Shown in pieces: positions 59,080 through 60,626 of a stretch of DNA of 64,000 bases; the first letter of the stretch is position 1, and the number at the start of each line of letters is the position of its first letter. The translations under genes were made by a program, and so were the position numbers. The DNA lies in assembly GCA_963807165.1 (NCBI GenBank), contig CAWDZM010000001.1, positions 198,306 to 262,305 on the forward strand. The letters run 5' to 3'. The notes beneath the pieces are model-generated. The model saw only the letters and a list, made by a program, of their open reading frames with translations, was not told the DNA's origin and ran no database searches. Source of the DNA: an uncultured bacterium (GTDB lineage Bacteria; Patescibacteriota; Minisyncoccia; UBA6257; 2-01-FULL-56-20).

Positions 59080-60626
59080 ATTGATCCACGCACAGCTTCC
59101 GCTACGCGTGCCTTGTTACGACTTAGCCCATGTTACCGATCTTAAATTAATACCACCGAAGCGATATTTCATCTATTACCGGCTCCCTTGGCTTGACGGG
59201 CAGTGAGTACAGGACTCGAGAACGTATTCACCGCAGCGTGGCTGATCTGCGATTACTAGCGATTCCGGCTTCATGAGGGCAGGTTTCAGCCCTCAATCCG
59301 AACTGGGGCCGGGTTTGATGGGATTAGCTCCCGCTTACGCGTTGGCAACCCATTGTCCCGACCATTGTAACACGAGTGTAGCCCAAGGTATCAAAGGGCC
59401 ATGCGGATTTGACGTCATCCCCTCCTTCCTCCCCGCCCGAAAACGATAATCATACATGCCTACACAGCACATATAATTCTCATCTTTGGGCGGGGCAGTT
59501 TCACGCGACACATGTAACGCGTAATAGGGGTTGCGCTCGTTACCCCACTTAAGGGAACACTTCAAAGCACGAGCTGACGACAACCATGCAGCACCTGTCC
59601 ATGATGTCCTTGTGAGAGGGCCAATGTTTCCACCGGCTTTCATCATAGATTTCTAACCTTGGTAAGGTTCCTCGCTTACTGACGAATTAAACCTCATGTT
59701 CCACCGCTTGTGCGAGTCCCCGTCTATTCCTTTGAGTTTTAGCCTTGCGGCCGTACTTCCCAGGCGGCCTGTTTAACGCGTTAGCTACGCCACTCCGAGG
59801 GTCGATACTCGAAACAGCAAACAGGCATCGTTTAGGGCGTGGACTACAAGGGTATCTAATCCTTTTTGCTCCCCACGCTTTCGCATCTCAGAGTCAGGAA
59901 GGTCCCAGTGCACTGCCTTCGCCTTTGGTGTTCCCCACGATATCAACGGATTTCACCCCTACACCGTGAGTTCCATGCACCTCTAACCTCCTCTAGTTCC
60001 GCCGTATCTCCTGCACTTCCACCGTTAGGCGGTGGGCTTTAACAAAAGACGCGCGAAACCTCCTACATGCTCTTTACGCCCAATAAATCCGGATAATGCT
60101 TGAGGTCTACGTATTACCGCTGGTGCTGGCACGTAGTTACCCACCTCTTTCCGTATGACAGTCATTTGCATTCTTATCATACTACCGTAGTTTACGACCC
60201 GAGGGCCTTCATCCTACACGCGGTGTCGCTCGATCAGGCTTTCGCCCATTGTCGAATATTCTCGACTGCTGCCTCCCGTAGGAGTACGAGCCGTGTCTCA
60301 GTCTCGTCGTTGGGGGTCAGGCTCTCACCTCCCCTACCGGTCATAGCCTTGGTAAGCCGTTACCTTACCAACTAGCTGATCGGACCTAGGCCGATCTCAA
60401 AGCGTCTTGCGACTTTCGTCTTTCGACAATATCGGGTATTACCTCACCTTTCGATGAGCTATCCCCGTCTTCGAGGTACGTACCAGGGTGTTACTAACTC
60501 GTTCGCCGCTAAACATATCAATCCGTCGTCTTGATGTAATCGCAACTTCTTCAAAATATGTTCCGCTCGACTTGCATGCCTTATCCACACCGCCAGCATT
60601 CATCCTGGACCAGGATCAAATCCTCT
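59080..60626 (-). rRNA. rrs: 16S ribosomal RNA. The 3' end lacks the CCUCC anti-SD. Two mismatches in the 515F site.
   Basis: 5' end AGAGGATTTGATCCTGGTCCAG..., 3' end ...AAGTCGTAACAAGG...GGATCA followed by ATTAAAC. Conserved blocks throughout. Confidence 0.9.

Follow-up and report, generated by a model that had tools for sequence, protein, structure and literature searches.

A parcubacterial 16S rRNA gene with a conserved tail in place of the anti-Shine-Dalgarno sequence, among genes with leaderless-type starts

Pairing of an mRNA's Shine-Dalgarno (SD) sequence with the anti-SD at the 3' end of 16S rRNA is the textbook route by which bacteria initiate translation, and few known RNA sequences are as conserved as the anti-SD. 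The closest described exception is within the Parcubacteria: according to Tsurumaki et al. (2022, RNA 28:1041, PMC9297842), only 48% of Parcubacteria have a detectable CCTCCT where the 16S ends (3'), the deficit overlaps with a subgroup that lacks the ribosomal protein uL1, and no SD helix is inferred to form in those that lack the motif. Here we describe a 16S rRNA gene in a 64-kb stretch of contig CAWDZM010000001.1 (hereafter, the window), from an uncultured bacterium. In this gene, the conserved GGAUCA is followed by AUUAAACU instead of the anti-SD. We consider it likely that the gene is genuine and functional and that this lineage has lost the anti-SD core, within a system of mostly leaderless initiation.

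Loss of the anti-SD has also been described in Flavobacteriia (Chryseobacterium, Elizabethkingia, Riemerella, and Blattabacterium), in some Mycoplasma, and in Candidatus Carsonella, and 120 of 128 anti-SD-less taxa are without SD (Lim 2012, PMC3457768; Amin 2018, PMC6107228). The loss in the window is a further instance of the trait that was published for Parcubacteria. In the literature that we searched, we saw no description of the conservation of the replacement tail, of the leaderless layout gene by gene, or of the orphan GGAGG leaders, which may have been reported elsewhere.

The 3' end of the 16S rRNA gene

Coordinates are positions in the window, and the 16S rRNA gene is read on the minus strand. 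Its parts and its predicted processing signals are:

59074..60631, minus strand: full-length bacterial 16S rRNA gene (Rfam RF00177)
59087..59110, minus strand: helix 45 (CACGCGUAGC-GGAA-GCUGUGCGUG), intact, with a GGAA loop (Rfam consensus alignment and fold)
59082..59087, minus strand: conserved GGAUCA linker (GGATCA in DNA), the usual lead-in to the anti-SD (alignment and pattern match)
59074..59081, minus strand: replacement tail AUUAAACU (ATTAAACT in DNA), which fills the 8 positions of CCUCCUUA (Rfam alignment)
60803..60830, minus strand: sigma-70-type promoter upstream of the 16S, TTGACA-16-TACAAT with an extended TG (11/12 consensus matches)
60726..60737, minus strand: 5' strand of the pre-16S processing stem, GUUGUCCCAAUU, in the leader (complementarity)
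58978..58989, minus strand: 3' strand of the pre-16S processing stem, AAUUGGGACAAC (complementarity)
58990..59073, minus strand: variable 3' trailer with two hairpins, one of them CUUUCUUCUC paired with GAGGGAGG (fold z = -4.3)

The gene matches RF00177 across model positions 1-1533 with a score of 1352 bits (the gathering score is 50). In the alignment of its 3' part, helix 44 is shortened (69 nt), helix 45 and GGAUC fit the consensus, and AAUUAAACU stands opposite model positions 1525-1533 (ACCUCCUUu). Because helix 45 and the GAUCA linker are recognizable, the tail can be located unambiguously. The stretch of about 13 nt beyond helix 45 reads GAUCAAUUAAACU, with no CCUCC(U). The original prediction, which was made from the letters of the window and reported that the anti-SD was missing from the 3' end, quoted this sequence and its coordinates correctly; the interval that it gave, 59080-59110, covers helix 45 and the first bases of the tail. 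Its statement that there is no CCTCC within 100 nt can be extended: in the rRNA sense, CCTCC is absent from all of 58000-60700, which comprises the entire 16S gene and about 1 kb downstream. The closest approach to GATCACCTCCTT in the whole window, with one mismatch, is at an unrelated site. We also looked for another anti-SD inside the 16S and rejected it: besides strands of paired helices, we found only the CUCCU of helix 14, which is universal and is the only CUCCU in the gene. With RNAduplex, pairing to GAGGAGGU is predicted to yield -0.5 kcal/mol for the new tail and -12.6 kcal/mol for the canonical tail. In the terms that Lim 2012 and Amin 2018 use for anti-SD-less 16S rRNAs, the linker can be located, CCUCC(U) is absent, and SD is not the dominant motif upstream of genes (see below).

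The leader at 60726-60737 and the trailer at 58978-58989 are perfect complements over 12 bp; such a stem is the usual bracket of pre-16S rRNA. Its TTAGTTGTCCCAA strand is kept in five related contigs (L101, L044, L047, L041, and L089), and its TTGGGACAAC(T)AAAAAG strand is kept in relatives as well. Given the intact promoter and the conserved stem, the 16S gene looks functional. This long stem excludes the tail. We considered pairing of the tail with the 5' leader of the 16S and rejected it, as the duplexes reach only about -5 kcal/mol and their positions are inconsistent among relatives. Between the tail and the stem, the trailer (58990-59073) matches only the closest relative, L101; across relatives, this spacer ranges from 23 to 171 nt and has no conserved motif. 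There is no linked 23S gene. Instead, the downstream neighbor encodes a response regulator, followed by the gene for L19. The response-regulator gene starts 134 nt beyond the tail, so there is no room for a hidden exon.

To judge from its genes rather than from formal phylogenomics, the organism is a Parcubacterium (Paceibacterota/Minisyncoccia) from the candidate phyla radiation (CPR). Relatives of its L19 at 89-94% identity are from organisms named Minisyncoccia or Candidatus Paceibacterota, and the other window genes that we scanned are consistent with CPR (MurC, MurG, FtsW, ComEC, SecDF, ABC transporters, and response regulators). The gene order 16S, response regulator, L19, tRNA-Leu, SecDF is common to the window and to L101, L040, L041, L044, and L094.

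We searched for relatives of the 3' end in two ways. A scan of GTDB species genomes used a pattern with a helix-44 gap of 85-115 nt, which excludes lengths like the 69 nt of the window, and gave two matches, both in metagenome-assembled genomes (MAGs). L001, from a Candidatus Liptonbacteria MAG, has a helix 45 identical to that of the window and the tail GGATCAATTAAACTAAA; L002, from a Candidatus Paceibacterota MAG, has the tail GGATCATCTTTAAAGG, which also lacks CCUCC. A scan of metagenomes used the helix-45 pattern and left the tail free. It gave at least 120 loci, which are a sample and not a census. Among the matches listed, 70 loci have the canonical tail (GGATCACCTCCTT), 13 have an ATTAAAC tail (14 sequences if the window is counted), and 38 have other tails without CCUCC, such as CUACAUUU, UUUCUAUU, UCUUUAAAGG, and GGAUUAAUUCAAA.

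The absence stated in the original prediction is confirmed. Among the matches listed, GGATCA is followed by the full ATTAAACT in 12 other contigs (11 from metagenomes, plus the MAG contig L001). Because the same junction recurs in these contigs, the absence of CCUCC is not an accident of assembly. All eight bases of the tail are invariant in the 13 sequences of this set; position 9 is A in 10 of the 13, and later positions have no consistent base. Among the matches listed, ATTAAAC is present in every contig whose 16S is at least 84% identical to that of the window: L101 (98%, over 1562 nt), L040 (95%), L094 (92%), L044 and L047 (90% each), L046 and L116 (87% each), and L070 (85%). Beyond the tail, the other ATTAAACT contigs have unrelated sequence, and even L101 diverges directly past the tail and realigns only at GTCGAACTTTCTTC. 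Fixation of the tail across 16S divergence of up to about 15% suggests that it is a conserved replacement and not the product of decay. The mature 16S of E. coli ends exactly 8 bases after GGAUCA (GGAUCACCUCCUUA). Since the boundary of conservation also sits 8 bases after GGAUCA, it suggests a mature 3' end at about ...AAACU(A), that is, ...GGAUCAAUUAAACU(A). In a neighbor-joining tree of the 3' 700 nt, which is distorted by insertions in the 16S genes, tails without the anti-SD fall in several groups.

Several other features of these rRNA loci are worth recording. Insertions of about 1 kb, which are typical of CPR rRNA genes, interrupt the 16S genes of close relatives (at about 8462-9510 in L041, whose 16S spans 3081 nt, and at about 288-1184 in L001), while the window gene is uninterrupted (1545-nt span). 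At 59194-59211 (minus strand; 16S positions of about 1391-1408), the decoding center reads UGUACUCACUGCCCGUCA rather than the near-universal UGUACACACCGCCCGUCA. By our numbering, these changes are A1396U and C1400U, and the decoding-center change is common to both MAG loci, L001 and L002. The 515 region has CAGCACCAGCGG in place of CAGCAGCCGCGG. Together, these changes would also defeat the universal primers 515F and 1392R.

Downstream of the 16S, a GTCGA or GTCGG motif follows the variable hairpin, 15-60 nt past the 3' end (about 59041-59045 in the window, minus strand). It is found in almost all of the Parcubacteria loci listed (L001-L122), with or without CCUCC, and is probably a conserved pre-rRNA processing element. 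Among the matches listed (L003-L122), relatives that keep CCUCC nearly always have UUUCUAGGGAG or UUUCUAAGGAG right after the anti-SD, so the CCUCC of the precursor can fold onto the downstream GGGAG or AGGAG. The same hairpin logic is retained after several degenerate tails, such as UCUUUAAAGGA and AUCCUAGUAAGGA. As for neighboring genes, those on either side of the 16S include three for response-regulator receiver proteins that are short or stand alone: two upstream, of 129 and 193 amino acids (61362-62329, minus strand), and one downstream, of 127 amino acids (58557-58940, minus strand). The downstream one is syntenic with the 16S and L19 across the clade.

Leaderless-type gene starts

To analyze how genes start, we used long non-overlapping open reading frames (ORFs) and compared their first starts with in-frame internal ATG, GTG, or TTG codons, which serve as a control from within the genome. 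A -10 box (TAnnnT) that ends 5-9 nt upstream is present at 22 of 71 first starts in the window (31%), as compared to 2.7% of internal start-like codons, which agrees with the leaderless starts of the original prediction. The spacer from the box to the start codon peaks at 6 nt. If nearby alternative starts are allowed, then 28 of the 71 genes have leaderless-type starts. These include dnaX, rpsB, recO, murC, murG, secD, secF, and response regulators. A -10 box that abuts the ATG is the sequence signature of leaderless mRNAs. An example lies just downstream of the 16S:

58938..58952, minus strand: leaderless-type start of the response-regulator gene (58557-58940), with TAGAAT, 6 nt, and ATG (sequence)

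The layout of this start is kept in L101, which has TAAAAT, a 6-nt spacer, and ATG.

Genes that lie head to tail in operon-like fashion each have a -10 box of their own within the end of the upstream gene, as at 44463, 47101, and 55595. In two arrays on the minus strand (43222-47101 and 54696-56858), which include murG, ftsW, an amidohydrolase, and secD/secF, these boxes stand 6-9 nt before the ATG. The presence of separate -10 boxes in operon-like arrays suggests that transcription units are mostly monocistronic and leaderless.

The same signal is found across the clade with the ATTAAAC tail. The most enriched hexamer upstream of genes is TATAAT (z = 12.3), and SD k-mers are absent from the 14 most enriched upstream k-mers of the clade. 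A strict -10 box next to the start is found for 15-23% of genes, versus 0.6% of internal codons (Fisher p = 6e-15). With the same pipeline, a 50-kb control from E. coli gave 0-1.8% with an adjacent -10 box and 23-30% with SD pentamers. Parcubacteria loci that keep CCUCC have -10 boxes adjacent to 8.5-12.5% of starts, versus 1.1% of internal codons, and 11-21% SD pentamers, or modest use of SD. Leaderless initiation is probably older than the loss of the anti-SD, because relatives that bear CCUCC show the -10-adjacent signal too; it probably came first and relaxed the selection on the anti-SD.

The original prediction had suggested that initiation is independent of SD. The duplex energy of the tail and the dominance of -10 boxes at the ATG both support this. 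SD is not the top motif upstream of starts, and a significant minority of GGAGG leaders persists.

GGAGG leaders, rival explanations, and other genes of the window

Exact GGAGG occurs 5-11 nt upstream of 6 first starts in the window, as compared to 0.54 expected (Poisson p = 2e-5). The non-uniform picture that had been described at the outset is thus statistically real, and the two motifs that were cited for it, before 2810 and before the 41-amino-acid ORF at 7051, are both present. With AAGGAG before 58143 and AGGAGG before the ORF at 7051, there are eight ORFs with SD-like leaders:

2796..2802, plus strand: GAGGAGG, 7 nt upstream of the TTG that starts a 229-amino-acid protein with a signal-peptide-like N-terminus
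4975..4982, minus strand: AGGAGGAG, before a gene (4247-4969) for a PEP-CTERM protein that starts with TTG
7035..7040, plus strand: AGGAGG, before the 41-amino-acid membrane ORF at 7051
14468..14476, minus strand: GAGGAGGAG, before an 81-amino-acid ORF (14219-14464)
32493..32498, minus strand: AGGAGG, before the TTG start of ORF 32053-32484
49595..49601, minus strand: GAGGAGG, before ORF 49169-49588
546..552, plus strand: GGGAGGG, before ORF 557-901
58150..58155, minus strand: AAGGAG, before ORF 57754-58143

Several of the motifs extend to GAGGAGG or AGGAGGAG, and the spacings are 5-9 nt. A -10-like box lies another 15-35 nt upstream, so these look like true leadered mRNAs with a canonical ribosome-binding site. 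The eight ORFs are mostly small; they encode hypothetical, membrane, or PEP-CTERM proteins without any further Pfam match, and TTG is the start codon of three. Their GC content, overall and at third codon positions (GC3), is close to that of the leaderless genes. L101 and L123 also have ORF 57754-58143 and conserve its GGTAAGGAG; L040 and L041 have no such ORF between L19 and tRNA-Leu, which indicates a lineage-specific insertion. For ORF 49169-49588, we did not find an ortholog in the corresponding neighborhood of L040. No excess of GGAGG is seen in the other Parcubacteria loci without the anti-SD (1.8% versus 1.3%). If the lineage has lost the anti-SD, then the genes with SD-like leaders may be accessory genes that kept these leaders or arrived with them and that are now translated without SD pairing; this is the weakest step of our account.

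Two proteins, encoded at 4247-4969 and 10821-11417 (both on the minus strand), have a PEP-CTERM sorting motif at the C-terminus (E = 1e-5 and 1e-6). Both are preceded by purine-rich SD-like leaders. The motif is unexpected in a CPR genome.

Several points weigh against our account. GGAGG at SD spacing is enriched about 11-fold and is just as frequent as in CCUCC-bearing relatives, which is hard to square with a complete loss of SD recognition. The ordinary GC content of the genes with SD-like leaders means that recent transfer is not supported by their composition. The start sites are ORF-based guesses, predicted from sequence, and the mature 3' end is placed from the boundary of conservation. 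The clade that we used to count conservation is partly defined by the first 7 bases of the tail, so that only 16S similarity and the invariant position 8 are independent criteria. Finally, the window covers 64 kb of a genome of roughly 726 kb, and a second copy of the 16S elsewhere is possible.

A more far-reaching reading is that purifying selection has held the tail while the 16S diverged by at least 15%, that the tail was re-purposed for a new role on the 30S platform, and that, in addition, something other than the 16S reads the GGAGG leaders of small secreted or membrane genes. If so, then AUUAAACU(A) in place of CCUCCUUA would, for example, contact a protein or initiation factor or keep the mRNA exit site free, as part of a leaderless-first mode of translation. 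We view this combination as rather unlikely.

The second half of that reading can be judged separately: the GGAGG leaders might work without pairing to the 16S because a protein or another RNA reads them, as a special control over secreted or membrane accessory proteins. Besides the excess of exact GGAGG (6 versus 0.54 expected, p = 2e-5), 3 of the 8 GAGGAGG heptamers in the window stand 5-9 nt before the first start of an ORF, all eight ORFs are of the hypothetical, PEP-CTERM, or membrane kind (three with TTG starts), AAGGAG is kept in L101 despite diverging flanks, and the genes have the GC content of their own genome. Yet the sample is eight ORFs from one 64-kb window, and we identified no candidate reader. 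At 85% identity, a 9-nt motif that the window shares with L101 carries no significance, other anti-SD-less Parcubacteria contigs lack the enrichment (1.8% versus 1.3%), and the ORF that we checked (57754-58143), as a lineage-specific insertion, fits import with its original leader. We give a separate reader a low probability.

The enriched GGAGG leaders, with their canonical spacing, could instead mean that an anti-SD is present but was not seen, either in a second 16S gene (heterogeneous ribosomes) or because the mature tail is extended or spliced to a pyrimidine tract. The trailer does contain CUUUCUUCUCUUU, which could form G-U-rich pairs with GGAGG, and the metagenome contig L033, with the same helix 45, has CCTCCTTTCT. 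However, the 60 best 16S matches to the window do not include L033, and the pyrimidine tract lies inside a hairpin of the trailer and is found only in the 98%-identical L101, not in other members of the clade, whose trailers between tail and stem (23-171 nt) share no motif. Over about 1 kb downstream, CCTCC does not occur in the rRNA sense, and the gene that follows begins 134 nt past the tail. CPR genomes usually have a single set of rRNA genes, which argues against a second 16S. In Tsurumaki et al. (PMC9297842), too, genomes were the basis for scoring the motif as absent. A hidden anti-SD is thus quite improbable.

We find it very improbable that AUUAAACU is itself a new anti-SD that pairs with a leader motif (all or part of AGUUUAAU) or a downstream box. 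The tail does show strict conservation, is of canonical length, and is predicted to be single-stranded, and A/U-rich k-mers such as TTAAT are enriched upstream of starts. But these k-mers are equally enriched in relatives with the canonical tail. A match of 5 nt or more to the complement (AGTTTAAT) is found at -22..-3 for 11.4% of the clade's genes versus 9.8% at -50..-31, while the control with the reversed tail gives 16.7% and relatives that keep CCUCC give 20%. The complement is not enriched at +1..+30 either. Furthermore, leaderless mRNAs offer no leader to pair with, and an all-A/U helix of 5-8 bp would be very weak. With no enrichment of the complement near starts and no consistent pairing to the 16S leader, we rejected this candidate. 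That the 16S gene is a decaying pseudogene, or its 3' end an artefact of assembly, is barely credible: nothing specific favors it beyond the short helix 44 and the two near-universal decoding-center bases that are off consensus, and it conflicts with the full-length Rfam match (1352 bits), the intact promoter and processing stem, the 98% identity to L101 over 1562 nt, the same junction in 12 other contigs from different samples, and the presence of the unusual bases in L001 and L002 as well, which are therefore traits of the lineage.

Elsewhere in the window, an ORF with a LAGLIDADG_3 domain lies directly before each of the three tRNA genes, on the same strand and with a gap of 1-11 nt:

13236-14117, plus strand: LAGLIDADG_3 ORF (13236-14021), then tRNA-Tyr
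5050-5780, minus strand: LAGLIDADG_3 ORF (5124-5780), then tRNA-Gln
56909-57675, minus strand: LAGLIDADG_3 ORF (56992-57675), then tRNA-Leu

The three proteins are divergent paralogs (24-26% identity) that keep both LAGLIDADG motifs. The pair with tRNA-Leu is syntenic in L101, L040, L041, and L001. Each pair is a regular unit of a LAGLIDADG ORF and a tRNA.

Proposed mechanism and comparison with known systems

In the mechanism that we propose for the loss of the anti-SD, CPR relatives with CCUCC would already have made common use of leaderless initiation; the anti-SD would then have come under relaxed selection and been replaced. Transcription probably starts at or beside the start codon, given the -10 box 5-9 nt upstream of the ATG. 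The leaderless mRNAs would be loaded via the 5'-terminal AUG and the initiator tRNA, by the 70S route or the route with 30S and initiation factor 2 (IF2) of other leaderless systems, and would therefore need no SD/anti-SD helix. The tail may be kept for a purpose other than pairing with mRNA, such as maturation of the 3' end or a contact on the 30S platform. The orphan GGAGG leaders, imported or inherited, might be read by SD-independent binding of the 30S subunit, which is where the mechanism is weakest.

Lineages whose anti-SD has been replaced serve as natural experiments in the choice of start sites when it is gone. The window is a clean and well-anchored example from CPR, with a promoter, a processing stem, a conserved tail, and a leaderless layout that can be followed gene by gene. 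There are practical consequences as well: in such genomes, gene callers that model SD will misplace starts, and 16S annotations will err if they stop at GGATCA or count on CCTCC.

The Parcubacteria subgroup of Tsurumaki et al. has the same trait and belongs to the same lineage. That study treats the presence or absence of the motif and the correlation with loss of uL1; the replacement sequence, its conservation, the leaderless layout, and residual SD leaders are not described in its text as available, and the word "leaderless" does not occur there (PMC9297842). Our full-text searches for literature that combines Parcubacteria with leaderless and Shine-Dalgarno found none. Among the 53 of about 71 window ORFs that were scanned, none is rplA (uL1), and 64 kb is uninformative about the whole genome.

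The anti-SD-less Flavobacteriia, Mycoplasma, and Carsonella resemble the window in their intact helix 45, in a CCUCC that is missing or altered, and in having no genome-wide SD signal. They are unrelated to it, and A-rich, unstructured (Kozak-like) leaders, not leaderless mRNAs, are believed to be the alternative there, in contrast to the -10 box at the ATG in the window. Flavobacterium johnsoniae, a member of the Bacteroidetes (PMC6847099), also initiates largely without SD and has a few strong SD leaders left on particular genes. But its anti-SD is encoded, and although sequestered it is usable (as in the autoregulation of bS21), whereas in the window it is not encoded, and the SD-like leaders have no partner.

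Mammalian mitochondria, with reduced genomes, also combine a 12S rRNA that lacks the anti-SD with leaderless mRNAs. Their origin is independent and they have specialized mitoribosomal proteins, so the likeness is an analogy only. For the layout of the starts, the nearest parallels are Mycobacterium (PMC4633059) and Haloferax volcanii (PMC3986360): as in the window, many of their genes have a -10 or TATA box right before the start, with initiation at a 5'-terminal AUG. Both still encode CCUCC, whereas the lineage of the window seems to have gone further and replaced it.

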